A stretch of 64,000 nucleotides of DNA from Candidatus Omnitrophota bacterium (GCA_043811395.1 JBDRNE010000115.1:12212-76211), one strand, 5' to 3'; positions 9,551 to 64,000 are shown, counted from the first letter of the stretch. Numbers and translations are program-made. The notes: generated by a model not told the origin, from the letters alone.

Positions 9551-9576
9551 GAGTCAATTCGCTTTGAGCAATTACA

Positions 9577-11121: not shown

Positions 11122-11133
11122 TTTACATATGTT

Positions 11134-11211
11134 GTATGTCGTACATAGCATATCGCCTCAAAAGCCTTAAATTCTATATACGATGTACGACATACGATAC
11201 ACGACATACGA
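11134..11211 (+). promoter_or_regulatory. Inverted repeat plus tandem direct repeat immediately upstream of lolC/E (operator-like)
   Basis: GTATGTCGTACAT (11134-11146) pairs with ATGTACGACATAC (11183-11195). The direct repeat ACGACATACGA occurs at 11187-11197 and 11201-11211. Confidence 0.4.
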
Positions 11212-11216
11212 CAATT

Positions 11217-12428: not shown

Positions 12429-12477
12429 GCATTGAATGGCAAATTTATATTACAGGAGTATTTAAAAATAGGAAAAG

Positions 12478-13179
12478 ATGTTAAAGGCGCAGAATGTTAC
12501 AAAAATATTTAAACAGGGGATAAAGGACGTTATCGTTGTAAAAGATGCTAACTTGCATATTGCTAAAGGTGAGAGAGTATATGTATACGGTCCTTCCGGA
12601 GCCGGAAAATCTACACTGTTGCACATACTTGGAGGATTAACCCGTCCTACGGCAGGAAACGTGGCGCTTGAGGGAGAAAAGAATATATATGAAATTTCCC
12701 AAAACAGAAGAAGTTATATTCGAAATAGGTATTTTGGTTTTGTCTTTCAGTTTTTTTATCTTTTACCGGAGTTAAATGTACTGGAAAACGTTATGTTGCC
12801 GGCTGTTATTAGAGGGGAAGAAACTAAAAAAACCGTCAGGAATCGCGCTAGTGAACTTTTGGAAATTGTGCGTATGGATAAAAGAGTTTTGCATAGGCCA
12901 GCACAGCTTTCCGGAGGAGAATCCCAGCGTGTGGCGGTTGCTCGAGCATTAATAAATTTACCGGATATTTTGTTTTGCGATGAACCTACCGGTAATTTAG
13001 ATTCAGAATTACGCCAGGAAATCTATAGTCTGATAAAAAACGTTAGTGAAAAACGTAAAATGAGTGTTGTAATAGTTTCTCATCATTTGCTAAATGATGA
13101 TTTTTTTCATAGTGAATATTTAATGATGGATGGTAAAATAGAAAAGGAAAAAATCATTAAAGAGAATTATGTCGGATAA
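12478..13179 (+). CDS. lolD: ABC transporter ATP-binding protein (LolD-like)
   Basis: Walker A (GPSGAGKST), ABC signature (LSGGESQRV) and Walker B (ILFCDEPT) are present. It lies immediately downstream of the LolC/E permease. Confidence 0.85.
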   Translation: MLKAQNVTKIFKQGIKDVIVVKDANLHIAKGERVYVYGPSGAGKSTLLHILGGLTRPTAGNVALEGEKNIYEISQNRRSYIRNRYFGFVFQFFYLLPELNVLENVMLPAVIRGEETKKTVRNRASELLEIVRMDKRVLHRPAQLSGGESQRVAVARALINLPDILFCDEPTGNLDSELRQEIYSLIKNVSEKRKMSVVIVSHHLLNDDFFHSEYLMMDGKIEKEKIIKENYVG

Positions 13180-33417: not shown

Positions 33418-34794
33418 ATGAAATTGGTGGACACTCACTGCCATCTTAATTTTTCGGATTATGATAAAGATTTGCCGGAAGTATTGACCCGGGCCAAAAC
33501 CGCGGGCCTGGTCAGAATTATAGTTCCGGGGACGGATATAAAAAGCAGTATAAAGGCCGTTGAATTAGCTAAAAAGAATAAAATGATATTTGCCGCTGTG
33601 GGAGTACATCCTCATGAAGCTGATGATGCGGGCGTTTTAGACGTGGAAAAATTGAGGGATATTGCTGTTGGGAGTGACAAGGTAATCGCAATAGGCGAAA
33701 TTGGCTTAGACAAATATAAAAATTATTCAAAAATAGAGAATCAGCAAAAACTTTTTAGTGAGTGTTTACGTCTAGCGCGAACACTTGATCTGCCCGTTAT
33801 TATTCACAATAGACGAGCCGGGAAAGAAATGTTAGATATTTTAAAAAAATTTAAAAATACTGGAATAAAAGGTGTTTTTCATTGTTTTTCAGAGGACATA
33901 TCTTTTTTGAACGCAATACTTGAATTAGGTATGTATGTTTCTTTTGCGGGTAATATTACTTTTAAAAACGCTTTTGATTCGCGTAAGACGGCACAAGCCG
34001 TGCCTTTGGAGAAACTTCTTTTAGAAACGGATTCGCCTTTTATTACGCCGGAGCCTTACAGAGGCAAACGCAATGAACCGGCATATGTTAAAAACCTTTT
34101 AGATGTTTACGCAAAAATGTATAAATTGTCGGTAGAAGATGTAGCTAGGGTTACGACTCATAACGCGAATAAATTATTTAATCTTGGAATTAAAGAAAAA
34201 GGCGTGATAGCTTACGCTATACGGGATTCTTTGTATCTGAACATTACGAACAGGTGTACCAATAGATGTGGGTTTTGCACGAGGCAATATTCAAATTTTG
34301 TAAAGGGACATAAACTTTCTCTTGGTTCAGAGCCTTTGGCCGGAGAAATAATCCAAAAACTAAAAAAGGTTTCAAAATATAAGGAAATAGTATTTTGCGG
34401 TTTTGGAGAAGCTACTCTTAGGCTAAATACGGTTATAAAAATAGCGGCATACGTAAAAAGGCAAGGAGGTAAAGTTCGATTAACAACGAATGGACAGGGG
34501 AATCTCATTGCTGGATATAGTATAGCGCCAAAACTTAAGGGTATTGTTGACGCGGTGTCGGTAAGCCTGAATGAGGCAGAAGCGGATATGTATAGCCGGT
34601 TATGTTGTCCAAGTTTTGGCAAAAAAGCATATAGCGCGATAATGGACTTTATTAAAGAATGTGTCGAGCAGTCGATTAAAGTTGAAGTAACTTGTCTTGA
34701 TATGATAGGGGGTGAAGCTGTTTCCGCCTGTCGGAAGATGGCAAAAGATTTAGGGGCAGAATTTAGGATGAGGCATTTAGATGTAGTTGGTTAG
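33418..34794 (+). CDS. TatD-family metal-dependent hydrolase fused to a C-terminal radical SAM domain
   Basis: The N-terminal ~255 aa are TatD-like (VDTHCHLNF...HPHEAD...ETDSPF). The C-terminus carries CTNRCGFC (CxxxCxxC) with radical SAM core features. The RBS is GGAGGAAAT. Confidence 0.85.
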   Translation: MKLVDTHCHLNFSDYDKDLPEVLTRAKTAGLVRIIVPGTDIKSSIKAVELAKKNKMIFAAVGVHPHEADDAGVLDVEKLRDIAVGSDKVIAIGEIGLDKYKNYSKIENQQKLFSECLRLARTLDLPVIIHNRRAGKEMLDILKKFKNTGIKGVFHCFSEDISFLNAILELGMYVSFAGNITFKNAFDSRKTAQAVPLEKLLLETDSPFITPEPYRGKRNEPAYVKNLLDVYAKMYKLSVEDVARVTTHNANKLFNLGIKEKGVIAYAIRDSLYLNITNRCTNRCGFCTRQYSNFVKGHKLSLGSEPLAGEIIQKLKKVSKYKEIVFCGFGEATLRLNTVIKIAAYVKRQGGKVRLTTNGQGNLIAGYSIAPKLKGIVDAVSVSLNEAEADMYSRLCCPSFGKKAYSAIMDFIKECVEQSIKVEVTCLDMIGGEAVSACRKMAKDLGAEFRMRHLDVVG

Positions 34795-49569: not shown

Positions 49570-50604
49570 ATGTCAAAAGATGCGGGGAAAAACCGTGAAA
49601 ATAAAAAAATGAAGAAGGAGACTCTTCTGTGGGGGCTGTTTTTCGAAAAACTTCTTCAAAACGTTGATGCTTCGGTAATGGTTACGGATAGAGAAGAAAA
49701 AGTAATATTCGCAAATGAAAGGTATTTGGATTTTTTTAGTTTTAGAAAAGAGGAGATACTTGGTAAGAGCTGGATTGAAACTGTTATCCCAAAGGCTCAA
49801 CGAGAGTTAGTAAAAAAAATTTTTGAAGATATAAAAGCGAAAAAAATGCTTGGTAAATTTGATACCCCAGTTGCGAATTCAAAAAAATTAAAAAAACATT
49901 TATGCTGGATAGCTATTCCCTTAGAGGAAGAGCGTACAATGTTGTATACCTTTATTGGAAAAGAAATAACGGAATCTCCCGGGCAGAAAATAGTAAAGGT
50001 GTATAAAAATACAAAAGTGACGTTAAATACGGCATATGCTGAAGTTGTTGAGGCGCTTTTTTCCGCCGCGGAAGTAAGTGAACCCGGGACAGCAAAACAC
50101 GCGACAAGGGTTATGCTTTTCGCGGGTGCATTAGCAAAAAAGCTTAATATTTCGCAAGAGGATATTGAAAAACTTAAAGTAGCATCTCTTCTGCATGATC
50201 TCGGAAAACTGGCTGTTGATGAAAAGATATTGTTTAAGAAAGGCAAACTGAACGGAGAAGAATTTGAACAAATAAAAAACCATCCGCGATGGGGGTCGGA
50301 GATGATATATCTTGTATATTTTTTAAGAGATATTATCCCGATTATGGCTAATCACCATGAAAATTATGATGGGACGGGTTATCCTGATGGGCTTGAAGGT
50401 GAAAATATTCCGCTATCAGCGAGAGTTTTGGGAATAGCGGATATATATGAAGCTTTAACCGCGGACAGGCCTTACCGCAGAGGTTTTTCTCACGAAGACG
50501 CGGTGGAAATAATAAAAAGTGAAAAAGGCCGAAAACTAGATCCCGCGATTACGGATGTGTTTTTAGAAATGTTAAAAAACGGAGAGATAAAGGAGAATAT
50601 TTGA
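49570..50604 (+). CDS. HD-GYP domain phosphodiesterase with N-terminal PAS-like sensor domain
   Basis: The motifs HDLGK and HHENYDGTGYP are present. Confidence 0.85.
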   Translation: MSKDAGKNRENKKMKKETLLWGLFFEKLLQNVDASVMVTDREEKVIFANERYLDFFSFRKEEILGKSWIETVIPKAQRELVKKIFEDIKAKKMLGKFDTPVANSKKLKKHLCWIAIPLEEERTMLYTFIGKEITESPGQKIVKVYKNTKVTLNTAYAEVVEALFSAAEVSEPGTAKHATRVMLFAGALAKKLNISQEDIEKLKVASLLHDLGKLAVDEKILFKKGKLNGEEFEQIKNHPRWGSEMIYLVYFLRDIIPIMANHHENYDGTGYPDGLEGENIPLSARVLGIADIYEALTADRPYRRGFSHEDAVEIIKSEKGRKLDPAITDVFLEMLKNGEIKENI

Positions 50605-51728
50605 ATTCAACATGTTGTGATCTGATGGCTCTTAGCTTTGTTGACGGTCTTGGCCCAAGAAGAATTTTATCAATTATAAACAAAGTTCCTGAAGGGAAAA
50701 ATATATTTTTGATGCCGGATTTTAAAATCGCGGAAATTATATCAAACTTAAAAACTATTGATAAAATAAAAAAGGTAAAAGATACTGATGAATATAAACG
50801 GGAATTAGAGTACGTTCAAAAAGAAAAAATCTCAGTTTTATGTTTAAAAGATAAAGAGTATTCCTGTAATTTGAAAAGCATATATGATCCTCCGGCGGTT
50901 CTTTACTGTAAAGGAGATTTTTTAGACGCGGATATTAATGCTGTTGCCATTGTTGGATCTCGGCGATGTTCCTTGTATGGGCAGAAAATGGCAAAAAGTT
51001 TAGCCGCGGACCTTGCAAAAAAAGGAATAACCGTAGTAAGCGGGATGGCAAGGGGGATAGATATAGCGGCGCATAGAGGGGCTCTTGAAGCGGGCGGGCG
51101 CACTATCGCGGTTATGGGAAGCGGGTTCAGGCATATTTATCCAGTAGAGGCAAAACCTTTGATTGAAGAAATATGCCATAGTGGAGCGGTTATCACTGAA
51201 TATAGTTCAGAAACTCATCCTCTGCGTCAAAATTTTCCAAGACGTAACAGAATTATAAGTGGATTGGTTAAGGCTGTTGTGGTTGTTGAAGCGGCAGAAA
51301 GAAGCGGTGCTATGATAACCGTGGATTTCGCTCTTGAACAGGGTCGGGAAGTTTTTGCCGTGCCTGGCAGAGTTGATTCATATGCAGCCAATGGCTCTAA
51401 TAAGCTTATACAAGACGGTGCTAAATTAGTAATGTCAGCCGAAGATATTCTTAATGAGCTTAATCTTGAAAAAATAGATGCCATAAAAAGGTCTGATAAA
51501 GAAGTAACCGTGGAAGTTCTGAACAAATTAGATAATGAAGAACGGATGGTGCTTGACTTAATCAGTATTGAAAAAAATGCGCATATTGATGATATTCTGG
51601 AGCAAACCAATTTAGATCCGGGAAGAGTTCACGCGGCAATACTTAAAATGCAGATGAAGAGGTTGATAAAAGAAATACCTGGAAAATATTTTGCTTTGAC
51701 AAATGAAAAACTATCAAGAAAAGGATGA
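50601..51728 (+). CDS. dprA: DNA-processing protein A (Smf), Rossmann-fold ssDNA-binding domain plus C-terminal winged helix
   Basis: The sequence GSRRCSLYGQKMA...SGMARGIDIAAHRGALEAGGRTIAVMGSG is present. The TTG at 50601 follows AAGGAG at ideal spacing and overlaps the HD-GYP stop codon. Confidence 0.9.
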   Translation: MNSTCCDLMALSFVDGLGPRRILSIINKVPEGKNIFLMPDFKIAEIISNLKTIDKIKKVKDTDEYKRELEYVQKEKISVLCLKDKEYSCNLKSIYDPPAVLYCKGDFLDADINAVAIVGSRRCSLYGQKMAKSLAADLAKKGITVVSGMARGIDIAAHRGALEAGGRTIAVMGSGFRHIYPVEAKPLIEEICHSGAVITEYSSETHPLRQNFPRRNRIISGLVKAVVVVEAAERSGAMITVDFALEQGREVFAVPGRVDSYAANGSNKLIQDGAKLVMSAEDILNELNLEKIDAIKRSDKEVTVEVLNKLDNEERMVLDLISIEKNAHIDDILEQTNLDPGRVHAAILKMQMKRLIKEIPGKYFALTNEKLSRKG

Positions 51729-51734
51729 GTATTT

Positions 51735-53795
51735 ATGGCGGTTAAGAAGAAGACAACTAAAACAAAAAAAAACCTGTCAAAATTTTTGGTAATTGTAGAA
51801 TCTCCCGCAAAATCAAAAACCATAAATAAGATATTGGGAAAAAATTTTAAAGTATTGGCAAGTATGGGGCATATCATTGATTTGCCGGTGGATAGAATGG
51901 GAATTGATTTTGAAAATGGGTTTAAGCCAGAATATATGGTTATGAAAGGTAGAAAAAAATATTTGAACAGTCTTAAAAAAGAGGCCAAAACCGCTTCCGC
52001 GATATATCTTGCCGCTGACCCTGATAGAGAAGGAGAAGCGATTTGCTGGCATCTGAAGAATTCTCTCGCGAAAAAAGATACTACTTTTCATAGGGTAAGT
52101 TTTGGAGAAATAACGGAAAAAGCTGTTAAAGCCGCATTTCTTCATCCGGGTGAACTGGATATGAACAAGATAAATGCTCAGCAGGCACGCCGGATTTTAG
52201 ACAGGATTGTCGGATATTCTTTAAGTCCGCTTTTGTGGCGAAAAATAACAAGGGGATTAAGCGCTGGCCGGGTACAATCAGTAGCTGTTATGTTGATTGT
52301 AAGACGAGAAGAAGAAATAAGGCGGTTTAAATCTGAAGAGTATTGGAGTATAGAAGCTCTTTTGAGTAAGAAAAACCAAAAAGATGAGGTTTCTCCGGAG
52401 TTTAACGCGCGTCTCGTAAAATATAAAGGCGAAAAAATTGATATACCAGATGAAGAGACTGTTAAAGAGATTGTTTCAAATGTTGAGAAGGAAGAGTTTA
52501 AAGTAGCGGATATCAGTCGTAAAGATAAAAAGAGCTATCCAAGGGCGCCTTATATTACTTCAGCTTTACAGCAGGACGCGTTTAATAAATTGAATTTTTC
52601 AGCTAACAAGACAATGAGAATCGCGCAAAGTCTTTATGAAGGAATAGACCTGGGCGAAGAAGGAAGTGTTGGTTTAATAACGTATATGCGTACAGATTCT
52701 GTTCGCGTGTCTCTCGATGCGGCAGATGACGCGAAAAAATATATATTAAGCGAATACGGAGAAAAATATTACGCGAAAAAGCAAGTGCAGTACAAATCGA
52801 AAAAAGGAGCGCAAGAAGCGCATGAAGCAATAAGACCCACTCTTCCATTAAGGCCGCCTGATGAAATAGCAGGAATGTTGAGTGTGGATGAGTTAAAGCT
52901 TTATAGCCTGATCTGGAAACGATTTATTGCTAGCCAGATGGAGAATGCTCTTTTTTCTGTTTTAACTGTAAACATATCTGCCGGAGATTACAGGTTTCGT
53001 GCTGGCGGGAGCCAGCTTATTTTTGACGGGTTTTTGAAAGTTTATAAAGGTATGGATGATATTACTGAGGATGATTCAGAAATACCTGATCTTACAGTCG
53101 GAGAAATAGTTGACCTGAAGGAATTGGTTCCCGAACAGCATTTTACAAAACCACCGGCGCGGTATACAGACGCTTCTTTAGTAAAAATTTTGGAAGAAAA
53201 AGGTATCGGCCGGCCTTCAACATACGCGCCGATTATACGTACAGTTATAAATAGAAACTATATTCAGCGTAAAGGCAAAGCTCTTCATCCGACGGAGTTA
53301 GGGGAATTAGTTAACGGTCTTCTTCTTGAAAATTTTCCGGATGTTGTAGACGAAGAATTTACGGCGAAAATGGAAACGGAACTTGATAATATCGAGGATG
53401 GAAAGATTAAATGGGTCGAGGTATTGAAAAACTTTTATTTGCCTTTTACAAAGAAACTTGAGGAAGCAAAGGAACGAATGCGTAATGTTAAGAGACAGGT
53501 TGTGACAACCGATGAAATATGTGATAAATGCGGGAAACCAATGGTTATAAAATGGGGGCGTCGTGGAAGATTTTTGAGTTGTTCGGATTTTCCGACGTGT
53601 AAAAACGCGAAATCAATAACAACAGGCGTTAAATGTCCTGAACCAAACTGTGACGGTGAACTCTTGGAACGGAAGTCTTCCCGGGGGATGTTTTACGGAT
53701 GTACAAGATATCCTAAATGTACACATACGACAAAAAAACTTCCGGTACCAGAAGAAAACGATAACGGCGCATCAGATTACGTTGAGGAGGAATAA
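51735..53795 (+). CDS. topA: DNA topoisomerase I (type IA) with C-terminal zinc ribbons
   Basis: The TOPRIM region is VIVESPAKSKTI. The active-site Tyr region is present. The C-terminal C4 Zn fingers are CDKCG...CSDFPTC and CPEPNC...CTRYPKC. Confidence 0.95.
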   Translation: MAVKKKTTKTKKNLSKFLVIVESPAKSKTINKILGKNFKVLASMGHIIDLPVDRMGIDFENGFKPEYMVMKGRKKYLNSLKKEAKTASAIYLAADPDREGEAICWHLKNSLAKKDTTFHRVSFGEITEKAVKAAFLHPGELDMNKINAQQARRILDRIVGYSLSPLLWRKITRGLSAGRVQSVAVMLIVRREEEIRRFKSEEYWSIEALLSKKNQKDEVSPEFNARLVKYKGEKIDIPDEETVKEIVSNVEKEEFKVADISRKDKKSYPRAPYITSALQQDAFNKLNFSANKTMRIAQSLYEGIDLGEEGSVGLITYMRTDSVRVSLDAADDAKKYILSEYGEKYYAKKQVQYKSKKGAQEAHEAIRPTLPLRPPDEIAGMLSVDELKLYSLIWKRFIASQMENALFSVLTVNISAGDYRFRAGGSQLIFDGFLKVYKGMDDITEDDSEIPDLTVGEIVDLKELVPEQHFTKPPARYTDASLVKILEEKGIGRPSTYAPIIRTVINRNYIQRKGKALHPTELGELVNGLLLENFPDVVDEEFTAKMETELDNIEDGKIKWVEVLKNFYLPFTKKLEEAKERMRNVKRQVVTTDEICDKCGKPMVIKWGRRGRFLSCSDFPTCKNAKSITTGVKCPEPNCDGELLERKSSRGMFYGCTRYPKCTHTTKKLPVPEENDNGASDYVEEE

Positions 53796-53800
53796 AACCG

Positions 53801-54673
53801 GTGAGGCGTTATATAGAAAAGTTCAGGAATTATCTCGATATAGAAAAAAATTATTCAGTCCACACTTTAAGAAACTATCAGTCTGATCTTAAGGAACTGT
53901 CAATTTTTTTGGAAAACAAAGATATAAAAGATGTGAATCATCTTGATATTAGGCGTTTTTTAGCGGAATTAAAGCAAAAAGGTTCTGCGAAACGTACTAT
54001 TGTTAGAAAATTGGGCGCGGTACGGTCGTTTTTTAAGTTTCTTTTTCGAGAAAAATATATAGAATCCGATCCGGCAGGAAGTGTTTTTACTCCGAAACTT
54101 GATAAAAGATTGCCTGAATTTCTTGATCTTGAAAAAACTTTAAAGCTTATTACTTCACCAAATTCTGATACTTTTTTAGGATTAAGGGATCGGGCTATGT
54201 TAGAGGTTTTGTATTCAACAGGTATCAGAGTAAGCGAATTGGTGGGACTTAACATTCAGAATATTGATTTTATAGCGGGTGTAATTAAGGTAAGAGGGAA
54301 AGGTAAAAAGGAACGGATTGCATTGCTTGGACAGCAGGCTCAATTGTCTCTCAGGCGGTATGTGCGAGAAAAACAGGGGTTTTCGGCGGTGGAAGAGAAA
54401 GCAGTGTTTCTCAACAGGTTTGGCGGACGGCTTACGGATAGAAGTGTAAGACGGCTTATTGATAAATATGTAAAAAAATGCAGTATAGAACAAAAGATAT
54501 CTCCCCATTCTATTCGTCACTCATTTGCTACGCATATGATAAATAATGGTGCGGATCTAAGAAGCGTGCAGGAACTGTTGGGTCACAAAAATCTGTCAAC
54601 GACTCAGATTTATACTCATCTTGGTTCACAAAGAATTAAAACTATGTATACAAAAGCACATCCAAGAGCCTGA
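53801..54673 (+). CDS. xerC: Tyrosine site-specific recombinase XerC/XerD family
   Basis: The C-terminal catalytic motif is HSIRHSFATHM...LGHKNLSTTQIYTH. The GTG start follows GAGGAGG. Confidence 0.85.
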   Translation: MRRYIEKFRNYLDIEKNYSVHTLRNYQSDLKELSIFLENKDIKDVNHLDIRRFLAELKQKGSAKRTIVRKLGAVRSFFKFLFREKYIESDPAGSVFTPKLDKRLPEFLDLEKTLKLITSPNSDTFLGLRDRAMLEVLYSTGIRVSELVGLNIQNIDFIAGVIKVRGKGKKERIALLGQQAQLSLRRYVREKQGFSAVEEKAVFLNRFGGRLTDRSVRRLIDKYVKKCSIEQKISPHSIRHSFATHMINNGADLRSVQELLGHKNLSTTQIYTHLGSQRIKTMYTKAHPRA

Positions 54674-54697
54674 TTTTTTAGGCGGGATAAAGCTATT

Positions 54698-55972
54698 ATG
54701 AAATTTTTATATGATTTAGTTTTTATAATTTTCAGTATTTTATATGTGCCATATCTTGTGTTTAAGGGCAAAGCCCATAAAGGGTTTTCGGAAAAATTTG
54801 GATTTTTGCCGGAAAAAGTTACAAGATTGCGTAATCCCGTGTGGATACATTCTGTAAGTGTCGGTGAAGCGGTTTTGGGTGTTAAACTGTCCGCGTATTT
54901 AAAAAAATGTTTTCCAGATAGACCTATAATTGTTTCAACTACAACACGGACAGGCTATGATGTGGTTTCAAAAACGCAAAATGGTTTCGTGGACGCGGTA
55001 TTTTATTATCCCATGGATTTAAGTTTTATTACGGCTAAGGTTGTATCAAAGATAGAGCCGTTCGCCTATATTATGATTGAAACCGAGCTTTGGCCGAATA
55101 TGTTACGTGAATTACAGTCACGGAACATTCCGGTTATAATGGTGAACGGGAGGATATCTGATTCGTCGTTCAAAAATTATAAGCGCGTAAAATTTCTGAT
55201 GACACGTATTTTAAAATGCGTTAGCTGTTTTTGTATGCAGACAGAGCGGGATGCTGAAAAAATTGCACAATTGGGCGCGTCAAAAAACAAAATATTTGTT
55301 TCCGGAAATATGAAATTTGATGAAGGTCTTTGTTCTTCGGGGCAAAAAGGTATTAATCCGGAGTGTTTTGGATTTCATGATAAGGACAAAGTTATAGTCG
55401 CGGGGAGCACTCATTTTCCGGAAGAAATTGATATTATTGACGTTTATAAAGATTTAAAGGCGGAACGAAGTAATCTGCGGCTTATTATCGCGCCTCGTCA
55501 TGTGGAACGCACTTCGAAAATACAGAATGATATTGAAAAGGCAGGGTTAAACTGTCTCCGATTTTCTGAAATTTTGAAAAGCGGCGTTCATGACAATTTT
55601 TCAAATAAAATAATACTGGTGGATACGATAGGGCATTTGGCTGATATTTACAGTGTAGCGGATATTGTTTTTATAGGCGGTAGTTTGGTAAAAAAGGGCG
55701 GGCAGAATCCGATAGAACCTGCAAGGTGGGGGAAAATTGTTATTTTCGGGCCCAATATGTTTAATTTTCGAAAGATAACGGATACATTTTTAGAAAATAA
55801 CGCGGCTTGTAAAATAAGAAACAAGCAGGAACTTAAAATAAAGATAAAAGAATTTTTATCGAACACGCGAAAGAGTTGTGAAATGTCAAAAAATGCTTTA
55901 AAAGTTATTGAACAAAATTCAGGGGCAATTGAAAAAACAGTTGAAAAAATAAAAGGATATTTGACAAGATAA
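54698..55972 (+). CDS. waaA: 3-deoxy-D-manno-octulosonic acid (Kdo) transferase
   Basis: The GT30 N-terminal motif is PVWIHSVSVGE, and a C-terminal GT-B domain is present. Confidence 0.9.
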   Translation: MKFLYDLVFIIFSILYVPYLVFKGKAHKGFSEKFGFLPEKVTRLRNPVWIHSVSVGEAVLGVKLSAYLKKCFPDRPIIVSTTTRTGYDVVSKTQNGFVDAVFYYPMDLSFITAKVVSKIEPFAYIMIETELWPNMLRELQSRNIPVIMVNGRISDSSFKNYKRVKFLMTRILKCVSCFCMQTERDAEKIAQLGASKNKIFVSGNMKFDEGLCSSGQKGINPECFGFHDKDKVIVAGSTHFPEEIDIIDVYKDLKAERSNLRLIIAPRHVERTSKIQNDIEKAGLNCLRFSEILKSGVHDNFSNKIILVDTIGHLADIYSVADIVFIGGSLVKKGGQNPIEPARWGKIVIFGPNMFNFRKITDTFLENNAACKIRNKQELKIKIKEFLSNTRKSCEMSKNALKVIEQNSGAIEKTVEKIKGYLTR

Positions 55973-56028
55973 AGGTTTTGAACAATAAGGGGATAGGACT
56001 GTTGTTTAGATTATATATCTTAAAACTT

Positions 56029-57036
56029 ATGAAAGACGAAAACTCCGGTTTTTTTGATAATCTTATAAAAGGGGTTTTGCGAATTTTATCCTGGATTTAT
56101 TATGTAGCGATAAAATTTGTAGATAAATCTTATAGGCTGGGAATTAGGCGCGAGATTAAAATAAGCATTCCGGTTATAAGTGTAGGAAATATTACTTTAG
56201 GCGGAACAGGTAAAACTCCTTTGGCGATTTTTTTAGCAGAATATTATCAAGCAAGAGGTAAAAAACCCGCGATACTTATTCGCGGGTACGGCGGGGATGA
56301 GAACCGTTTGCTTGCGGATGAACTGGCAGATATTTCTATTTTTACGGGGCAGGATCGGGTTAAAAATGCCCGTATGGCTGTTGCTAGAAAAAATGATGTT
56401 ATTATTCTGGATGACGCCTTCCAGCATAGAAGAATAAGGCGTGATTACAATATTGTGGTACTCGATAGTGTTTCTCTGTTTGGAAATAAGGCTTTAGTGC
56501 CGAGAGGAATTTTAAGGGAACCGGTTTCTTCGCTTGGGAGGGCGTCCGCGTTTGTACTTACAAAGGCGGATATGATAGGCGAAACTCGGAAGAATGCTGT
56601 TACGGAAATGTTGAAATCTAGCTTTCCGGAGATTCCGATTGCTCTAACTTGTCATAGGCCTTTGTCTTTTAGCGATGTGACAGGCGCGTCATATCCGGTA
56701 GAGACTATTAAAGGTTGGCAAATAGCTGTTGTTAGCGGAATAGGTGATCCTGATTATTTAGCGTTTTTATTGGAGAGGCAAGGAGCTAATATTGTTTTAA
56801 GACGAGACTATATGGATCATTATCAGTACACTCAGAAAGATATTGATAGGATTTCTCGCGATGTTCTCACGAGAAAAGTCCAAAAAATAATTGTAACCGC
56901 GAAAGATTATGTGAAACTTAAAAATTTAAATTTATCAAATATCGAAGACAAAACATTTATTTTAAAAATAGGCATTGATTTTATCGCCGGGAAGGAGGGG
57001 TTAATTGCTGGACTTAATAGCGTCATTTCTGGTTAG
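56029..57036 (+). CDS. lpxK: Tetraacyldisaccharide 4'-kinase
   Basis: The P-loop is GNITLGGTGKTP. With the ATG at 56029, the N-terminal TM helix aligns with the SW motif position of E. coli LpxK. The track start at 55978 is TTG. Confidence 0.85.
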   Translation: MKDENSGFFDNLIKGVLRILSWIYYVAIKFVDKSYRLGIRREIKISIPVISVGNITLGGTGKTPLAIFLAEYYQARGKKPAILIRGYGGDENRLLADELADISIFTGQDRVKNARMAVARKNDVIILDDAFQHRRIRRDYNIVVLDSVSLFGNKALVPRGILREPVSSLGRASAFVLTKADMIGETRKNAVTEMLKSSFPEIPIALTCHRPLSFSDVTGASYPVETIKGWQIAVVSGIGDPDYLAFLLERQGANIVLRRDYMDHYQYTQKDIDRISRDVLTRKVQKIIVTAKDYVKLKNLNLSNIEDKTFILKIGIDFIAGKEGLIAGLNSVISG

Positions 57037-58939
57037 AGTGATTAATCTTGTCTTTTATGTTCTACCAATTGAGGTTAATTTAGCCATTGGCAGGAGTTTG
57101 GGCGGATGTATATATCTTTTAAGCGGGAAAAGAAGCGCGATTACGTATTCGAACCTTAAAGCGGCATATGCTTTGAGCAAATCTGCGGAGAATGAAAACA
57201 AAACCCCGCAGGAAATTAAGCGGATCACGAAAAGTGCATACAGGAACGTTGGGCAAACTTTTGCGGAACTTATTTCAATGACAAAGGTTTCCTCGGCGTA
57301 CATAAACAAATTTGTAAGTATCAAGAACTTTGAAAGAATACAGTCTGCCGCTAAAAATCCTAAAGGGATGATTTTGGTTTCCGCGCATTTTGGCAACTGG
57401 GAAATTAGTACCATAACGAGCGGGTTTAAGGGGTTCCCGATGTACATTTTAGCGCGGGACCAAAAAATGAAACGATTAAATGAACTTTTAAATGTACTGC
57501 GTGAATCTAAAGGAATTAAGGTTATACGAAAAGGTGCAAGCATTAAAAATATCTTTCGTGTGCTTCAAAATGGTAAAAATATTGGTTTGCTTGCTGATCA
57601 AAATGCCGGTCCGCAGGGGTTTCTGGATGATTTTTTCGGTCGGCCCGCTTCAACTGCCGTCGGCCCGTATCGGTTTGCGCAAAAAAGCGGAGCATGGATA
57701 TTGCCGGCGTTTATTCATCGGGTAAAAGGGCCATATCATGAGCTTGTGCTGGAAAAACCGATGGTTTTGGGCAAGGACGATGACATAGGGGTTTATCTGC
57801 ATGAATACAATAAACTTTTAGAAAAACATGTGAGGGCGCATCCCGAGCAGTGGTTATGGATGCATAAAAGATGGAAGATGACGCCGGTAAAATATGTTAT
57901 GGTTTTAGATGATGGAAAAAAAGGTCATTTAAAACAAAGTTTAGCGGTTGTAGGGCAGATGAAACAGTACCGGGAGAATGAAGGGTTTAGTCCGGAAAAC
58001 CTAAAAATGCAAATAGTGCCGGTAAAATTCAAAAGCAAGAAGAATAAAATTATTTTTAACCTAGCAAGTTTGTTTTTTTCTGCGCGGTGTCAAGGATGTT
58101 TAAAATGTTTAAAATGGGCGCTTAAAAAGGATAGTTATGAGTTGATTTCGTCAAAATACGCGGATATTATCGTGAGCTGTGGTTCGAGTTTGTCATCGGT
58201 TAACAGGCTTATGAAAATAGAGAATTATGCCCGCAATCTTACGGTACTGGATCCGGGGGTTTTGATTCGAAAAAAGTTTGATCTTATTGTGGTTCCTCGG
58301 CATGATGCCGGCGGGCGGAGTTTTGACGAAGATAAAACTATAGTAACAGAACTATCTCCTAATTTGGTGAAAGAATTACCTGGTATGGAGGTCAAGCAGA
58401 ACTGTATAGGGGTATTGTTCGGTGGTGATAACAAGTATTTTAGTTTGACCGAAGAGATGGCTCGCATTGCGGTAAAAGAGTTAAAGAAGGCATGTGAATC
58501 TATTGACGGGGAAACTTATATTACTACTTCACGAAGGACTGTGCCCCCGGTAGAGAAGATTTTAAAAAACGAGTTTGAAGCTTATTCAGGAAGTTATAGA
58601 TTTGTTTCCGGTTCAAACGATAAAGATCCGTTTACTGTAGAGAAAATTTTGGCACGAAGCAATGTGGTTGTTGTTTCAGGAGAAAGCATTTCAATGGTGT
58701 CGGAAGCTGTTGCTTCCGGCAGACAAGTATTAGTTTTTATGCCTAAAAAAAAGACGAAAGACATTACGAAGTATGAAAAGTTTGTTCAAAATCTCGAACA
58801 AAAAAAGTATCTTAAATGCGTTAATATTGAGGATATTGCCGCAAGAATCACAGAGACTGTAAAACAGGGGAAATTGAAGAAAAATATTGTGCCGGAAGAT
58901 AATAAAAGAATTTATGAGAAAATGTATAGATTGTTTTAG
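57005..58939 (+). CDS. lpxL: Fusion: lipid A biosynthesis lauroyl/myristoyl acyltransferase (LpxL/HtrB family) + C-terminal ELM1/DUF1022-like domain
   Basis: The N-terminal ~290 aa carry the HFGNWE acyltransferase motif and the LpxL C-terminal signature EQWLWMHKRWK. The C-terminal ~350 aa start at VMVLDDGKKGHLKQSLAV, which is typical of the ELM1 family. The TTG start follows AAGGAGG. Confidence 0.7.
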   Translation: MLDLIASFLVRVINLVFYVLPIEVNLAIGRSLGGCIYLLSGKRSAITYSNLKAAYALSKSAENENKTPQEIKRITKSAYRNVGQTFAELISMTKVSSAYINKFVSIKNFERIQSAAKNPKGMILVSAHFGNWEISTITSGFKGFPMYILARDQKMKRLNELLNVLRESKGIKVIRKGASIKNIFRVLQNGKNIGLLADQNAGPQGFLDDFFGRPASTAVGPYRFAQKSGAWILPAFIHRVKGPYHELVLEKPMVLGKDDDIGVYLHEYNKLLEKHVRAHPEQWLWMHKRWKMTPVKYVMVLDDGKKGHLKQSLAVVGQMKQYRENEGFSPENLKMQIVPVKFKSKKNKIIFNLASLFFSARCQGCLKCLKWALKKDSYELISSKYADIIVSCGSSLSSVNRLMKIENYARNLTVLDPGVLIRKKFDLIVVPRHDAGGRSFDEDKTIVTELSPNLVKELPGMEVKQNCIGVLFGGDNKYFSLTEEMARIAVKELKKACESIDGETYITTSRRTVPPVEKILKNEFEAYSGSYRFVSGSNDKDPFTVEKILARSNVVVVSGESISMVSEAVASGRQVLVFMPKKKTKDITKYEKFVQNLEQKKYLKCVNIEDIAARITETVKQGKLKKNIVPEDNKRIYEKMYRLF

Positions 58940-59074
58940 CCCGGGCAATTTCAACTTGTAGTTGAAGTCGAGGCGGGCATGTTGCACGTGGCAGGTAACA
59001 CGTATCTTTTTATCTCGAGAGTGGGAAGGAAAGCCGGGCACGCAATGTGTGGCCTGCGTAACTTAGTATAAAAT

Positions 59075-61174
59075 ATGAATATTTTACAATTGGTTCCAAA
59101 ACTAAATGTGGGTGGTGTGGAAAAAGGCACTGTTGAAGTCGCGCGTTATTTGGTTCTTAACGGGCATAAGGCCGTTGTGGTTTCCGGAGGCGGAAGTTTT
59201 GAAAAAAAACTTGCCGCTATCGGCGCGCGTCACTACGCGTTGCCGGTAGGGAAAAAGAATCCATTTATTATGATGTACAGTTACTTTAAGCTGAAACAGA
59301 TAATTCTAAAGGAAAACATCAATATTGTGCATGCGCGGAGCCGGATACCTGCTCTCATTGGATATTTTGCGGCCAGGAAAACTGGTAAAGTTTTTATAAC
59401 TACCGCTCATGGACAATATAAAAAACATCTCATAAGCAAAGTAATGGGATGGGGAAAAATAGTTGTTACTGCCAATGAAACAATGGCAAGATATATGAAG
59501 GATAATTTTAACGTTCCTCTTCGAAAAATTAGTATTGTGCCAAGAGGGGTTGATCTTGAAAAGTTTTCTTTCAAATTGCCAGCTCAAAAGGTCGGCAAAA
59601 CTTTGCGTATAGGAATGATTTGCCGGTTTACTCCGCTTAAAGGGCATTTAGATTTTTTAAAAGCCGCCTCATATGTTTTAAGAAAAATTCCTAATCTTGA
59701 AGTTATTATGATGGGAGACAAATCTTCCGCGAAAGAAGAATATATTAAGAAAATTGAGCTGTCCGTTAAACGGCTTATGATGGGAGGAGTCGTAAAATTT
59801 ATCGACAGCAGTCAAAGCGTTTCAGAAGTAATGAAAAGTTTAGATATTTTAGTTTCGGCAAACAGAGAACAGGAAGCTTTTGGACGTTCGATTATTGAAG
59901 CTCAAGCGTGTGGGGTTCCGGTAGTCGCGACGAAAGTAGGTGGTGTTATTGAAACTGTATTAAACGAACAAACAGGTTTGTTGTGCGAGGCCGGAAACCC
60001 GACAGATATGGCGGATAAAATACTCCAATACGCGCGGGATTTAAAACTTATGCAGACAGTAGCCTTAGCCGCACGGCAATATGTTGAGGATAATTATTCT
60101 TTGAGAAAAGCCATGGATTTGACGATGCAGGTTTATACGAAAGCGCTTAACGCTAAAAGTATACTTGTCCTTAAAATGAGCGCGCTGGGAGATGTTATTC
60201 TCGTGGTACCGTCACTACGGGCGATAAGAGAACGGTATCCAGGTGCATTGATAAAAGTGCTTGTTGACGCGCGTTTTCGTGACTGTTTGGCAAATTGTCC
60301 ATATGTAGATGGAGTTATTTCTTGTGATTTTCAAACGCGGGATAAAGGAACGGGGTTTTTAAGGTTAGCGGCGAAACTTCGTTCAGAGGATTTTGATATG
60401 TCAATAGATTTTCAGAATAATACTAAAAGCCATATGTTGTCGTTTTTAGCGGCTATTCCTGAAAGATATGGATATGATAACCGGAAGATGAGTTTTTTAA
60501 TTAACCGAAAAATCAGTTTACCAAAAAAGCCTCTGTCCCCAATTGAACATCAAGCATGTGTTTTAGGTCTTATGGGAATTACAAGGGTAGAACCTGTTCT
60601 TAAACTTTGGCCAGGAAAAGACGATGTGGCGTGGGCTCAGAAATTCCTGAAAGATAATTGGCTGAAAGAGCGTCAGAAAATTGTCGGGTTTGCTTTGTCC
60701 TCGAGCAGTAGGTGGGAAACAAAAAACTGGGGACTTTCTGCTATGGTAGAAGTTGCGGATATGTTGGCAAAAAATGAAAACATAAGAGTCGTTCTTTTAG
60801 GGCAGGATTCGGATAACAATCTTAAAGAACTTTTTCTAAAAAAAACAAGAGCTAAACCAATAGACGCGGTAGGAAAAACCAGTATTTTACAGCTTTTCGC
60901 GCTTATCGGAGAATGTGACGCGGTACTTACCGGAGACAGCGCTCCTATGCATATTGCTACTAGTATGGGGACGCCTTTTACAGCTATTTTTGGTCCGACA
61001 GATCCTATCCGGCATGTTGTACCAGGGGAATTTTGTAAAATTTTGTATAAAAAACAGACATGCGCGCCATGTTATAAAGGTGTATGTAAGCGGAATAAAA
61101 AATGTATGACAAGCATAAAAACGTCCGAAGTTTTTAGCGCTTTAATGGAAAATATAAGAGATGGAAAAGAGTAA
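59075..61174 (+). CDS. Fusion glycosyltransferase: N-terminal GT4 (GT-B, retaining) + C-terminal GT9 heptosyltransferase-like domain
   Basis: The N-terminus (NVGGVEKGT...EAFGRSIIEAQACGVPVVAT) is the GT4 EX7E region. The C-terminus (ILVLKMSALGDVILVVPSLRAI) is GT9 and carries the C-terminal G...GDS..MHIA motif. Confidence 0.75.
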   Translation: MNILQLVPKLNVGGVEKGTVEVARYLVLNGHKAVVVSGGGSFEKKLAAIGARHYALPVGKKNPFIMMYSYFKLKQIILKENINIVHARSRIPALIGYFAARKTGKVFITTAHGQYKKHLISKVMGWGKIVVTANETMARYMKDNFNVPLRKISIVPRGVDLEKFSFKLPAQKVGKTLRIGMICRFTPLKGHLDFLKAASYVLRKIPNLEVIMMGDKSSAKEEYIKKIELSVKRLMMGGVVKFIDSSQSVSEVMKSLDILVSANREQEAFGRSIIEAQACGVPVVATKVGGVIETVLNEQTGLLCEAGNPTDMADKILQYARDLKLMQTVALAARQYVEDNYSLRKAMDLTMQVYTKALNAKSILVLKMSALGDVILVVPSLRAIRERYPGALIKVLVDARFRDCLANCPYVDGVISCDFQTRDKGTGFLRLAAKLRSEDFDMSIDFQNNTKSHMLSFLAAIPERYGYDNRKMSFLINRKISLPKKPLSPIEHQACVLGLMGITRVEPVLKLWPGKDDVAWAQKFLKDNWLKERQKIVGFALSSSSRWETKNWGLSAMVEVADMLAKNENIRVVLLGQDSDNNLKELFLKKTRAKPIDAVGKTSILQLFALIGECDAVLTGDSAPMHIATSMGTPFTAIFGPTDPIRHVVPGEFCKILYKKQTCAPCYKGVCKRNKKCMTSIKTSEVFSALMENIRDGKE

Positions 61175-61204
61175 TTAGAACTTGAAAATATTGGTTTTTA
61201 AAAT

Positions 61205-62308
61205 ATGAAAATACTATTGTTAACTACACACTTAAATATAGGCGGAGTAGGGTTTTATACGGTAAACTTGGCCAAATACCTAAAAAAAAGAAATGTTGAT
61301 GTTATTGTAGTTTCTTCCGGAGGGGATTTGGAAGAGATATTAGTTCGCGAACGTATACCTCATATAAAAATAGATATAAGGACTAAGTTTGAATTCAGCT
61401 TTAAGATTTTAAAAGTAGTACCTGTATTGTTCAATTTAGTAAAAAAAGAACATATTCAGGTAATACATGCTCAAACACGCGTAACGCAGGTCTTGGCATG
61501 GATTGTGTCAAGAATTACGCGGATTCCTTTTATTTCAACATGCCATGGTTTTTTTAAATCTCAAAGATTATCCCGTAAGCTTTTCCCGTGCTGGGGAGAG
61601 AAGATTATTGCTATAAGTGTCAGCGTTAAGGAACATCTTTTGGAAGATTTTTTTATTCCTAATAAGCGAGTGGAATTAATTCGTAACGGGATTGAAGTCA
61701 ATCGTTTCGTAAAAATCGCTTCTGAAACAAGAAGCAATCTTATAAAGAAGATGAATTGGTCTCGGGATGTGATAATAGTAGGTTCCGTTGGACGGCTTTC
61801 ACCGGTAAAAGGGTTTAATTATCTTATCTCAGCCTTCAAAAGGGCTAAAGCTGATAACGACAAGTTGAAATTACTTATTGTCGGAGAAGGTAAACAAGAA
61901 TCTGTTTTAAAACAGCAGGTTGAAAGTGCCGGGCTTTCTGGTGAGGTTTTGTTTGTTTCCGGCCGGGAGTCTTTGGAATACTATTTATCTGCAATGGATA
62001 TTTTTTGTCTATCGTCGGTAAGTGAAGGGTTAGGATTGTCTCTCATGGAGGCCATGGCGACAGGTATTGCCTGTATCGCTAGCAGTGTAGGTGGTCTCGT
62101 GGAACTTATTAATGATGGAGTAGATGGGCTTTTAGTTCCGGCAAAAAACGTTGAAAAATTAAGCGCTACGATAATTCGTCTGGCTGGAGATGATGTTTTT
62201 AGGACTTTGCTGAAAAAAAACGCGCAAAAAAAAGCTATTGAAAATTTTTCAATTGAAAAAAGCGTCGAGAAAACGATAAAAGTATATAGAGAAATGACAA
62301 AAGAATGA
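61205..62308 (+). CDS. Glycosyltransferase family 4
   Basis: It is paralogous to the N-terminal half of the preceding fusion (LLLTTHLNIGGVGFYTVNLAKYL...EGLGLSLMEAMATGIACIAS). Confidence 0.8.
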   Translation: MKILLLTTHLNIGGVGFYTVNLAKYLKKRNVDVIVVSSGGDLEEILVRERIPHIKIDIRTKFEFSFKILKVVPVLFNLVKKEHIQVIHAQTRVTQVLAWIVSRITRIPFISTCHGFFKSQRLSRKLFPCWGEKIIAISVSVKEHLLEDFFIPNKRVELIRNGIEVNRFVKIASETRSNLIKKMNWSRDVIIVGSVGRLSPVKGFNYLISAFKRAKADNDKLKLLIVGEGKQESVLKQQVESAGLSGEVLFVSGRESLEYYLSAMDIFCLSSVSEGLGLSLMEAMATGIACIASSVGGLVELINDGVDGLLVPAKNVEKLSATIIRLAGDDVFRTLLKKNAQKKAIENFSIEKSVEKTIKVYREMTKE

Positions 62309-62417
62309 CAAAATTTACCGCCAAAAGCGGGTCCGCCTCCGGTGGAAAATGTGAAAATGTTGTAGGGGAGGCCCTTGCGTCCTCCCCTAGTAGTGAATGG
62401 TAGATTGTGGATGAAAA

Positions 62418-63449
62418 ATGGAGAAACCTAAAAGAATACTTATTTTTGAATTAAATTGGCTGGGAGACATACTGTTTTCTTTTCCTTTTATTAAGGCTCT
62501 TAGAGGCGCTTTCCCGTCTGCTTATATAACTTGCGCGGTGGTGCCTCGGTACGCGGAACTTTTAAAAAACAATACTTGTGTGGATAAAATATACGAACTT
62601 TCAGATGGTAACGGCGTTTTATCTTTATTGGAAAAATTAAAATTTATCTTTTTTTTACGAAAAGAAAGATTTGATACTTGTTTTCTTCTTAAACCTTCAA
62701 GAAATAAATCATTTGTCGCGTTATGCGCGGGAATTAAGCGAAGAATAGGGTTCGGTGGTAAAAAATCTTTTCTTACGGAAGAAGTAAAGCTTCCCCTAAA
62801 AGAAATGCACAGAGTGTTTCAGATTTTGCTCATTGCAAAAAGTATTGGCATAGATGTTACAGATGATAAATATGAATATTGTGTAAATATAGAAGATTCA
62901 AAGTGTGTTAATGAGTTATTAAACGCGGATACATGCGATAACAATGCTTTAATTGCGATTAATCCCGGAGGGAACTGGCCAGCGAAAAGGTGGCCCGCTA
63001 AAAACTTTGTATTGCTTGCAAAAAAAATTTTAACTCAGTTTAGTAACGTAAAAATTGTTATAACAGGTGCTAAAAAAGATAAGTTACTTGCGGAAGATGT
63101 GGCGCGTGAAATAGGAAGTGAAAGGTGTTGTAACTTGGCAGGGTGCACAAAGTTGAATGAGTTAGCCTCGGTTTTTAGTAAATGTGCTCTTATGATAAGC
63201 TCTGATTCAGGCCCGTTACATTTAGCTTCCGCGGTCGGGACCGTTACAATAGGTATTTTTGGGCCGACATCACATAAAATCACCGGGCCGATGGGGGTTG
63301 GCAGGAGTATTGTAATTAGAGAAGATATTGATTGTAAAATTCCATGTTACGAAGAGCATTGTATGAAAGATTATATTTGCATGGAAAAAGTGACTGTAGA
63401 TAAGGTTTTTAACACGGTTTGTGATTTGTTTGGCCGGGGTGCTAAGTAG
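62418..63449 (+). CDS. Glycosyltransferase family 9 (ADP-heptose:LPS heptosyltransferase-like)
   Basis: The GT9 N-terminal motif is ILIFELNWLGDILFSFP, and the C-terminal motif is SGPLHLASAVGT. Confidence 0.8.
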   Translation: MEKPKRILIFELNWLGDILFSFPFIKALRGAFPSAYITCAVVPRYAELLKNNTCVDKIYELSDGNGVLSLLEKLKFIFFLRKERFDTCFLLKPSRNKSFVALCAGIKRRIGFGGKKSFLTEEVKLPLKEMHRVFQILLIAKSIGIDVTDDKYEYCVNIEDSKCVNELLNADTCDNNALIAINPGGNWPAKRWPAKNFVLLAKKILTQFSNVKIVITGAKKDKLLAEDVAREIGSERCCNLAGCTKLNELASVFSKCALMISSDSGPLHLASAVGTVTIGIFGPTSHKITGPMGVGRSIVIREDIDCKIPCYEEHCMKDYICMEKVTVDKVFNTVCDLFGRGAK

Positions 63450-63607
63450 AAGGGGGTGCAAGATTCAGTTGCTTTGTGTACCCGTATCAAACAGGTCCTC
63501 GGCTTCTAAAGTGGCCTGTGAAACTCGCCGGGCATACAAAGCAAGTGAATCTTTTGTCAAAAAGGTGTTTTGTGCAACGTGGAGCCTGTAACGTGTTACG
63601 CTAAATT

Positions 63608-64000
63608 ATGAAAATAGACAAAAAAAAAGTAAAATTAATTTTATTTATAACACTAAATAATTTGGGTGATATTGTGTTAACTACCCCTGTTTTTAATGAG
63701 CTTTGCCGAGAATTCCCGTCAGCTCTTATAGATGTTGTAACAGGGGCGCCTGGGAGAGAAATCTTTATTTCTCATCCTGCTGTCAGGGAGGTAGCGGTTC
63801 ATGGAAAAAGAAAATCATTATTAGATAGAATTTCTCAGGTTTTCCAGTTTCGCCGCAAAAAGTATGATTTAATAATAGATTTAAAAAACTCCCTTTTGCC
63901 GCATTTGATCGGGGCAAAATATCATGCAAATTTATACGCGTTTATAACGGAATTTATGCGCAGAAAAGGAGCTTTTCATAAAAAAGAACAGCATTTAATG
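63608..64000 (+). CDS. Glycosyltransferase family 9 (heptosyltransferase-like), 5' partial at the window end
   Basis: The ATG is at 63608. The N-terminal motif is LILFITLNNLGDIVLTTPVF. The frame stays open to the end of the window, so the gene is absent from the ORF track. Confidence 0.7.
   Translation, partial: MKIDKKKVKLILFITLNNLGDIVLTTPVFNELCREFPSALIDVVTGAPGREIFISHPAVREVAVHGKRKSLLDRISQVFQFRRKKYDLIIDLKNSLLPHLIGAKYHANLYAFITEFMRRKGAFHKKEQHLM

Follow-up and report, generated by a model that had tools for sequence, protein, structure and literature searches.

The question raised by the locus considered here is whether two glycosyltransferases (GTs) of lipopolysaccharide (LPS) core assembly, i.e., one of family GT4 and one of family GT9, genuinely have been joined into one protein, and, if so, then how that protein may have arisen and what it may do. 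The locus lies within a 64,000-nucleotide (nt) stretch of DNA from a Candidatus Omnitrophota bacterium (GCA_043811395.1 JBDRNE010000115.1:12212-76211). That whole stretch is described here as 'the window', with positions counted from its first letter. At 59075-61174 on the + strand the window contains a single open reading frame (ORF) of 699 amino acids (aa), which I designate here as F4::F9. To judge from its sequence, this protein is a genuine single-polypeptide GT4::GT9 fusion within an LPS core gene cluster. The reading preferred, with a probability of roughly 0.8, is that it is a bifunctional LPS inner-core glycosyltransferase, one that arose by ancient fusion of operon neighbours and that carries out two consecutive sugar additions.

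Two glycosyltransferase modules in one polypeptide

The N-terminal half of the protein (aa 12-348) matches the Pfam families PF13439 Glyco_transf_4 (87.3 bits, cut-off 28.5) and PF00534 Glycos_transf_1 (102.6 bits, cut-off 26.4). The C-terminal half (aa 429-674) matches PF01075 Glyco_transf_9 (107.7 bits, cut-off 22). An earlier, sequence-only reading of this DNA had claimed that a GT4 domain is joined here to a heptosyltransferase-like GT9 domain, and these scores, which are far above gathering cut-offs, bear that claim out. The parts of the gene are as follows:

59075-61174, + strand: GT4::GT9 fusion gene F4::F9, 699 aa (Pfam, homologue alignment, AlphaFold2 model, second assembly)
59075-60154, + strand: F4 module, a retaining-type GT4 domain of GT-B fold, aa 1-360 (Pfam, motifs)
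60134-60193, + strand: fusion junction, Y354 to D373 (translation, DSSP, alignment)
60155-61171, + strand: F9 module, a GT9 heptosyltransferase-like domain of GT-B fold, aa 361-699 (PF01075, TIGR02195, alignment with WaaF)

The junction, which translates to YTKALNAKSILVLKMSALGD, falls within the range of 60100-60200 that had been suggested for it. An AlphaFold2 model, built on a 28-sequence alignment, displays two complete GT-B units (mean predicted local distance difference test, or pLDDT, of 91.4; predicted template modelling score, or pTM, of 0.86). Within that model DSSP has the GT4 unit close with a helix at 343-359, followed by two residues and then, at 362-366, by beta-strand 1 of the GT9 unit. 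As modelled, that is, the GT4 C-terminal helix enters GT9 beta-strand 1 with essentially no linker. There are no junction indels among the 28 aligned fusion proteins, and between Tyr354, an invariant residue of the GT4 module, and Asp373 of the GT9 module the spacing is exactly 18 residues in 163 of 171 full-length fused proteins. With Foldseek, no solved structure was found to span both halves (query-normalised template modelling score, or TM, of at most 0.47). Taken singly, the GT4 half has target-normalised TM of 0.85 to 7MI0 and of 0.84-0.86 to HepE/BshA, and the GT9 half has TM of 0.89 to 3TOV and of 0.83 to WaaF (1PSW).

The earlier reading had advised looking at the junction in an independent assembly, as well as for a stop or frameshift between the two halves. 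A separately assembled metagenome-assembled genome (MAG) provides such an assembly, i.e., contig L007 (GCA_018814505.1, JAHIZQ010000127.1), which is 99.93% identical to window positions 53205-64000. (Related loci are given here L numbers, and homologous proteins P numbers.) Across the 2100-nt fusion ORF there are no differences between L007 and the window, and one 699-aa gene is called in L007. No stop or frameshift is seen at a gene boundary among the homologues, the sole stop found being inside a GT9 module, as considered further below.

Distribution of the fused architecture

The protein search covered 5.8 billion protein clusters (90% identity), with the best 120 matches considered. Both modules are present in 119 of those 120 clusters, at 49-87% identity to the window protein and with nearly all of them ~690-720 aa in length. 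Their sources are NCBI, JGI, ENA, and Logan, and every named one is Candidatus Omnitrophota/Omnitrophica. When 1.84 billion representatives at 50% identity were searched exhaustively, end-to-end fused matches were recovered down to ~25-30% identity, with 54 further fused representatives retrieved. Named fused members include one from Omnitrophota (40% identity), Candidatus Theseobacter exili of the Auribacterota (37%), and a Chlamydiota MAG (39%). As read from cluster names, that is, three phyla of the Planctomycetes-Verrucomicrobia-Chlamydiae (PVC) group carry the fusion: Omnitrophota, Auribacterota, and Chlamydiota. A contig scan made with a single protein gave just six close relatives, all of them Omnitrophota or 'Planctomycetia'-labelled MAGs. 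The earlier description of GT4-GT9 fusions as uncommon consequently is one that holds for model organisms only, and not for Omnitrophota, where nearly all of the best clusters are fused.

Each database name for these proteins ('lipopolysaccharide heptosyltransferase II', or 'PelF' for one of them) covers just one half. The literature searched does not describe the fusion, whether the subject was LPS or heptosyltransferases of Omnitrophota/Omnitrophica, bifunctional GT4/GT9 enzymes, or heptosyltransferase fusions. The family itself is already public in databases, and what is new is the conserved, linkerless GT4::GT9 pair amid other ways of fusing the six GT modules of its operon.

Two observations concern the records themselves. 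Fusion genes 66-70% identical to that of the window are found in contigs L003 (CAYPYT010000017.1) and L004 (CAZUYM010000073.1), both of which are labelled 'uncultured Planctomycetia bacterium'. Their closest relatives all belong to Omnitrophota, which points to a wrong taxonomic label or to mixed binning. Also, the protein search gave no 100% match to the 699-aa protein of the window itself, its best match being 87%, although an identical gene is called on L007 and the neighbouring GT4 was returned at 100% (P0275). The missing self-match probably reflects a gap in the protein collection or index.

Origin of the fusion and of its neighbours

Downstream of the fusion gene are further genes for the same two folds, on the same strand:

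61205-62308, + strand: N4, a stand-alone GT4, 367 aa (Pfam)
62418-63449, + strand: N9a, a stand-alone GT9, 343 aa (PF01075, 119.3 bits; TIGR02195, 163.7 bits)
63608-64000, + strand: N9b, the 5' part of a third GT9, with 131 codons visible and the gene interrupted by the window end

These ORFs and their Pfam matches agree with the earlier claim that the next three genes are a separate GT4, GT9, and GT9. N9b in its complete form is 333 aa, both in L007 (10404-11405) and in L001. Past the window end, L007 continues from N9b (333 aa) with a macro-domain protein (169 aa) and then with a fourth GT9, N9c (347 aa).

The alternative which survives best, though still it is an improbable one, is that the array arose from duplication, that is, of a GT4-GT9 pair or of the fused gene, with one copy being fused as F4::F9 and the other being split or unfused as N4 plus N9a. 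The gene order of GT4, GT9, GT4, GT9 is what invites this idea, and the earlier reading had proposed that the array came from tandem duplication accompanied by either fusion or fission. Other lineages, furthermore, have N4 and N9a within a single protein (P0183 of L015, P0153, and P0205). The two pairs are nevertheless just 25% identical, F4 to N4 over full length (131 bits) and F9 to N9a (105 bits), and the description of the N-terminus of the GT4 neighbour as clearly paralogous to that of the fusion is right as a statement of family-level similarity but not as one of close paralogy.

Scores against a profile of the fusion family point in both directions. Among GT4 targets these are 372 bits for a stand-alone GT4 of L012, 285-289 for the Rickettsia protein 7MI0, ~215 for N4, and ~120 for BshA. 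F4 and N4 can be placed within one GT4 subfamily since N4 exceeds the generic BshA, and since 7MI0 is the best Protein Data Bank (PDB) match of N4 (117 bits) as well as of F4, all of which is consistent with duplication. By the same scores, however, N4 is not the nearest relative of F4, as the stand-alone GT4s, i.e., 7MI0 and that of L012, are closer. Other stand-alone GT4s are ~36-39% identical to the fused GT4 half, and N4 has more than 120 orthologues of its own in Omnitrophota, at 44-100% identity. Among GT9 targets N9c scores 219-221 bits, N9a 191-194, and N9b 147-150.

Separate phylogenies of the GT4 and GT9 domains, as the earlier reading had proposed, likewise speak against its duplication scheme. 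Built by neighbour joining, from ~335-360 columns at 25-40% identity, with support of 61-88%, and without a broad outgroup sample of GT4 and GT9, these trees resolve six distinct orthogroups (F4, F9, N4, N9a, N9b, and N9c), in which the fused domains and their neighbours are not closest relatives. In a bootstrap of the four GT9 orthogroups, monophyly of each is recovered in 293-300 of 300 replicates. Pair duplication predicts the split F9+N9a versus N9b+N9c, which occurs in 8 of the 300, as compared with 265 of 300 for N9a+N9c. On these domain comparisons, then, the array did not originate by recent tandem duplication. An older duplication within the GT4 subfamily may have taken place, in which case it would precede the split between several PVC phyla.

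Preferred instead is that F4::F9 would have a single ancient origin, by the joining of two adjacent genes of a conserved operon, for which the 18-residue spacing is part of the basis. Other fusions among the same modules are found in relatives. In L015 (6830-11154) F4::F9 (724 aa) is directly followed by an N4::N9a protein (717 aa). L017 has F4::F9, N4, a polysaccharide deacetylase, N9a, and then N9b::N9c (677 aa, 9001-11034), and L016 (1666-4911) encodes a 1081-aa GT4::GT9::GT9 protein (P0153). In the domain trees P0153 and P0183 fall within the N4 clade by their GT4 halves (bootstrap 82) and group with N9a by their GT9 halves (bootstrap 88). The GT9::GT9 proteins P0210, P0211, and P0221 place with N9b by their first half (bootstrap 73) and with N9c by their second (84). 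GT4::GT4, triple GT4, and GT9::GT9 relatives also are among the homologue search matches. Linkers in fusion types other than F4::F9 are 17, 22, 24, 30, or 33 residues. As those of the N4::N9a type are 17, 24, or 30 residues, versus 18 for F4::F9, the F4::F9 and N4::N9a-type fusions appear to be independent events, which too argues against the duplication scheme.

Unfused forms exist as well. In L012-L014 a GT9, an ELM1, and an F4-type GT4 are encoded, in that order, by three separate, overlapping genes. The GT4 is ~37% identical to the fused GT4 half (that of L012 being the 372-bit target noted above), and the GT9 places nearer to N9c than to F9 in the tree. Because these loci link, without fusing them, the three domain types that Omnitrophota carry as LpxL::ELM1 beside GT4::GT9, they support fusion of functionally linked operon neighbours. 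L019, a complete 1.43-Mb genome, carries a stand-alone F4-type GT4 (P0204) without an adjacent GT9, and neither P0178 (a stand-alone GT9) nor P0187 (a stand-alone GT4) has an adjacent partner gene. Among the candidate cases of fission inspected (P0177, P0178, P0187, and P0204) no adjacent, unfused F4-F9 gene pair was found. By gene content, that is, secondary loss or separation of F4 and F9 also occurs. The downstream GT4 and GT9 genes would be explained best as separate, old orthogroups, serving other steps of the pathway.

The lipid A/core operon

Upstream of the fusion gene, and leading directly into it, are three genes of lipid A and core synthesis:

54698-55972, + strand: waaA, Kdo (3-deoxy-D-manno-octulosonic acid) transferase, at the head of the lipid A/core operon (Pfam Glycos_transf_N, 191.8 bits)
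55978-57036, + strand: lpxK, tetraacyldisaccharide-1-phosphate 4'-kinase (Pfam LpxK, 238.7 bits)
57005-58939, + strand: lpxL-like acyltransferase::ELM1 fusion, 644 aa, directly upstream of GT4::GT9

The operon order is waaA, lpxK, lpxL::ELM1, GT4::GT9, GT4, GT9, GT9, (macro), GT9. From waaA through to the second stand-alone GT9 this order recurs in L001 (fusion 87% identical), L005 (64%), and L007, and the waaA-to-GT9 order is seen also in the more distant L015 and L017. The position of waaA is the same in L001, L005, L007, and L015. A D-glycero-beta-D-manno-heptose-7-phosphate kinase is found in the clusters of L005, L015, and L017 (TIGR02198, 363-400 bits, cut-off 345), followed in all three by kdsB, with kdsA and kdsD additionally present in L015 and L017. 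On its gene content the cluster is the lipid A/inner-core operon of the phylum, to which a heptose donor pathway would appear to be linked.

It is against this context that a second alternative can be weighed, which is that the target is a glycoconjugate other than LPS core (capsule, glycolipid, or protein heptosylation), or else that the GT9 donor is other than ADP-heptose. GT4 and GT9 are broad families, F4 is not an orthologue of E. coli WaaG (a partial match of 45.7 bits, to 2IV7), and the literature searched yielded no Omnitrophota LPS structure. In addition, no GT9 module of the operon reaches the cut-off of the heptosyltransferase I (HepI) profile (WaaC, TIGR02193), with F9 at 93.1 bits versus the required 185.3. 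Weighing more heavily are the tight, conserved linkage to waaA, lpxK, and lpxL, extended in relatives to kdsA, kdsB, kdsD, and the heptose-7-phosphate kinase, and the scores of N9a (163.7 bits) and N9c (152.0 bits) on TIGR02195, the heptosyltransferase II (HepII) equivalog profile, both of which exceed its cut-off of 134.6. A target outside of the LPS core, or a different GT9 donor, thus appears decidedly unlikely.

A number of side observations concern this same region. The LpxL::ELM1 protein consists of Lip_A_acyltrans at aa 7-291 (160.7 bits) and Mito_fiss_Elm1, which is GT-B-like, at aa 307-607 (129.6 bits), both by Pfam, and this fusion is kept in L001, L005, L007, L015, and L017. As an acyltransferase plus a putative glycosyltransferase, it arguably is an odder pairing than GT4::GT9. 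The macro-domain gene stands between the third and fourth GT9 in L007 (11421-11930), L001 (13434-13955), and L005 (13288-13836), encoding 169-182 aa, and is absent from that position in L015 and L017. Its product resembles ADP-ribose-binding proteins and O-acetyl-ADP-ribose deacetylases, while scoring below all NCBIfam cut-offs. That an ADP-ribose-type binding module is found amid ADP-sugar-using enzymes may not be a coincidence.

Upstream of waaA, and on the same strand, are topA and a xerC-like recombinase, and from 19 to 54 kb the window holds housekeeping genes only. Scans of 53600-64000 for promoters (36, versus 27.6 +/- 4.3 in shuffled sequence) and for terminators (8, versus 7.7) both returned counts near to expectation, so that no operon boundary is callable from them. 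GC skew is uniformly positive, at +0.17 to +0.31 in every 1-kb window over 50000-64000, and from ~5.6 kb on nearly all long ORFs of the window are on the + strand, i.e., there is marked strand asymmetry with co-oriented genes. A 458-aa protein encoded at 33418-34794 on the + strand unusually pairs a TatD-type DNase/hydrolase (aa 4-255) with a radical S-adenosylmethionine (radical-SAM) domain (aa 274-433).

Catalytic motifs in both halves

Within the window protein the GT4 motif set is intact (G13-G14, H112, R184, K189, and E267-x7-E275), with those residues invariant in the 28-sequence alignment and retained in 159-170 of 171 fused homologues. Intact as well is the GT9 motif set (D373, K550, D621-S622, and H626), retained in 154-163 of the 171. 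Position 622 is occupied by Ser in 154 proteins and by Thr in 10 others, and all of the other motif residues are present in at least 93% of fused homologues. D373, K550, D621-S622, and H626 align with the corresponding residues of WaaF, and by analogy with WaaC and WaaF the first would be the N-terminal catalytic Asp and the others the donor-binding Lys and Asp-Ser-x-x-x-His motif. The four unfused neighbour modules, N4, N9a, N9b, and N9c, retain the corresponding motif residues also. As motif sets are intact in all of them, the six GT modules would appear to be catalytically competent.

A third alternative is that one half alone is catalytic, with the other being a degenerate GT-B module that serves as scaffold, membrane anchor, or acceptor-binding domain. 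Some fused homologues do depart from the motifs: G13/G14 become Y/D in 6 of 171, E267 is replaced in 12, and D373 is replaced in 8. The window protein, though, has both sets intact, as do at least 93% of homologues, and the degree of conservation within the 28-sequence alignment is similar in both halves. A division into one working and one degenerate half accordingly is given less credence still than is a target outside of the LPS core.

The GT9 modules display one further feature, a C-terminal motif of the form C-x2-C-x4-C-x5-C, which in F9 is C663-x2-C666-x4-C671-x5-C677. It is present in ~156-159 of 171 fused homologues and in every GT9 module examined, i.e., those of the window at 60155-61171 and 62418-63449, of L007 at 10404-11405 and 11927-12970, and of L012 at 2787-3773. 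This could be a structural metal site.

Finally, an assembly or annotation artefact, in which a missed stop or a frameshift error has run two neighbouring genes together, can be given almost no weight. A homologue on the 2-kb metagenome contig L018 (P0177) does carry an in-frame stop. A second assembly, however, has the same ORF without a single difference, and the full-length fused homologues, which number more than 170 and come from NCBI, JGI, ENA, and Logan assemblies, show no junction indels. The L018 stop, lying 12 residues past the catalytic Asp, is a nonsense change or sequencing error rather than a gene boundary, because it is inside of the GT9 module and replaces a conserved residue.

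A proposed pair of consecutive sugar additions

Returning to the preferred reading, that of a bifunctional inner-core glycosyltransferase, architecture, conservation, synteny, orthogroup structure, and motif conservation are what the analysis shows, and donor sugars, acceptor, order of addition, and any kinetic or physical coupling are inferred. The retaining GT4 module, F4, would add a hexose from a UDP- or GDP-sugar, and the inverting GT9 module, F9, would add a heptose from ADP-heptose. Both sugars would go, one after the other, onto one Kdo-lipid A acceptor. In lipid-linked glycan synthesis, GT-B enzymes hold the acceptor at the N-terminal domain and the nucleotide sugar at the C-terminal domain, with the C-terminal helix packing back onto the N-domain. 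The linkerless helix-to-strand junction would probably bring the acceptor-binding N-domains of both modules next to each other, on the cytoplasmic side of the inner membrane. The fixed junction length together with the pTM of 0.86 fits a defined relative orientation of the two units, which suggests, for the modelled protein, a rigid didomain. Since catalytic motifs are retained in both halves, the coupled hexose and heptose transfer that had been envisaged for the fusion is plausible.

Several points weigh against this reading and should be considered together. F9 exceeds the HepII cut-off by a margin of 0.2 bits (134.8 versus 134.6), with N9a and N9c both scoring higher. Given that margin along with the lack of a HepI match described above, individual reactions are not assignable to individual modules. 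A heptose-7-phosphate kinase is not seen within the annotated part of the window, 19-64 kb, with only the operons of relatives having one. For the modelled inter-domain geometry, pTM is the sole basis. The domain trees are subject to the method, identities, and outgroup sampling stated with them. The stand-alone F4-type GT4 of L019, lastly, indicates that fusion is not obligatory.

A more extended form of coupling can be entertained as well, if only tentatively. The pattern of fusions (F4::F9, N4::N9a, N9b::N9c, and GT4::GT9::GT9) fits enzymes which work as a coupled assembly line. It is conceivable, though rather doubtful, that the six GT modules, perhaps along with LpxL::ELM1, make up a physically coupled line for core assembly, with fusions marking consecutive enzymes and with F4::F9 passing its acceptor directly from one site to the other. 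If so, then direct hand-over of an acceptor from a retaining to an inverting site would be a type of channelling that has not been described for LPS core synthesis.

Comparison with known systems

What is known of LPS core assembly comes almost wholly from Proteobacteria, in which there is one enzyme per step. Among those enzymes E. coli WaaF/RfaF (1PSW) is like F9 in that the two align over ~280 residues, including an N-terminal G-D, a K-x-W, and the D-S-x-x-M-H donor motif, with a score of 122 bits against the fusion-family profile and with an LPS core operon context in common. It differs in being a single-module protein of ~348 aa, with ~23% identity to F9 in structural alignment, and in that two other GT9 genes of the operon outscore F9 on TIGR02195. 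The best solved relative of F9 is 3TOV, from Veillonella parvula (159 bits by profile, TM 0.89), which is a stand-alone, uncharacterised GT9 protein. That of F4 is 7MI0, from Rickettsia africae (32% identity, 172 bits by single sequence, 289 bits by profile), which shares the GG, H, R, K, and E-x7-E residues with F4 but is a stand-alone, alphaproteobacterial GT4 of ~380-400 residues, without a GT9 module. It is a structural-genomics entry for which I know of no established function. E. coli WaaG/RfaG (2IV7/2IW1) is a GT4 that adds glucose to the heptose HepII, and it acts beside GT9 heptosyltransferases, the hexose and heptose additions being textbook consecutive steps. F4 as an orthologue of WaaG was considered and set aside, as 2IV7 matches the fusion-family profile only weakly and in part, over residues 223-339.

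Relative to this one-enzyme-per-step arrangement, Omnitrophota and at least two sister PVC phyla would appear to tie a GT4 step permanently to one of GT9, with relatives fusing other adjacent steps. Such natural fusions provide Rosetta-stone evidence for which core glycosyltransferases cooperate, and F4::F9 itself could serve as a defined, soluble, two-enzyme construct with which to test physical coupling of consecutive core steps. Of more immediate practical concern, database names that describe just one half may cause automated pathway reconstructions for Omnitrophota to miss the hexosyltransferase step.

No general principle is altered by this, as fusion of operon neighbours is common and glycosyltransferases with tandem modules are of a known kind. 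E. coli O9a WbdA, with its tandem GT4 modules, and KpsC, with its tandem Kdo-transferase modules, each put two complete GT modules, within one polypeptide, to work in succession upon one lipid-linked acceptor. In both of those proteins the modules are from one family and the products are repeating polymers. F4::F9, unlike WbdA and KpsC, joins a retaining GT4 to an inverting GT9, does so within what would be a non-repetitive assembly of core, and does so by way of a fixed, linkerless junction.

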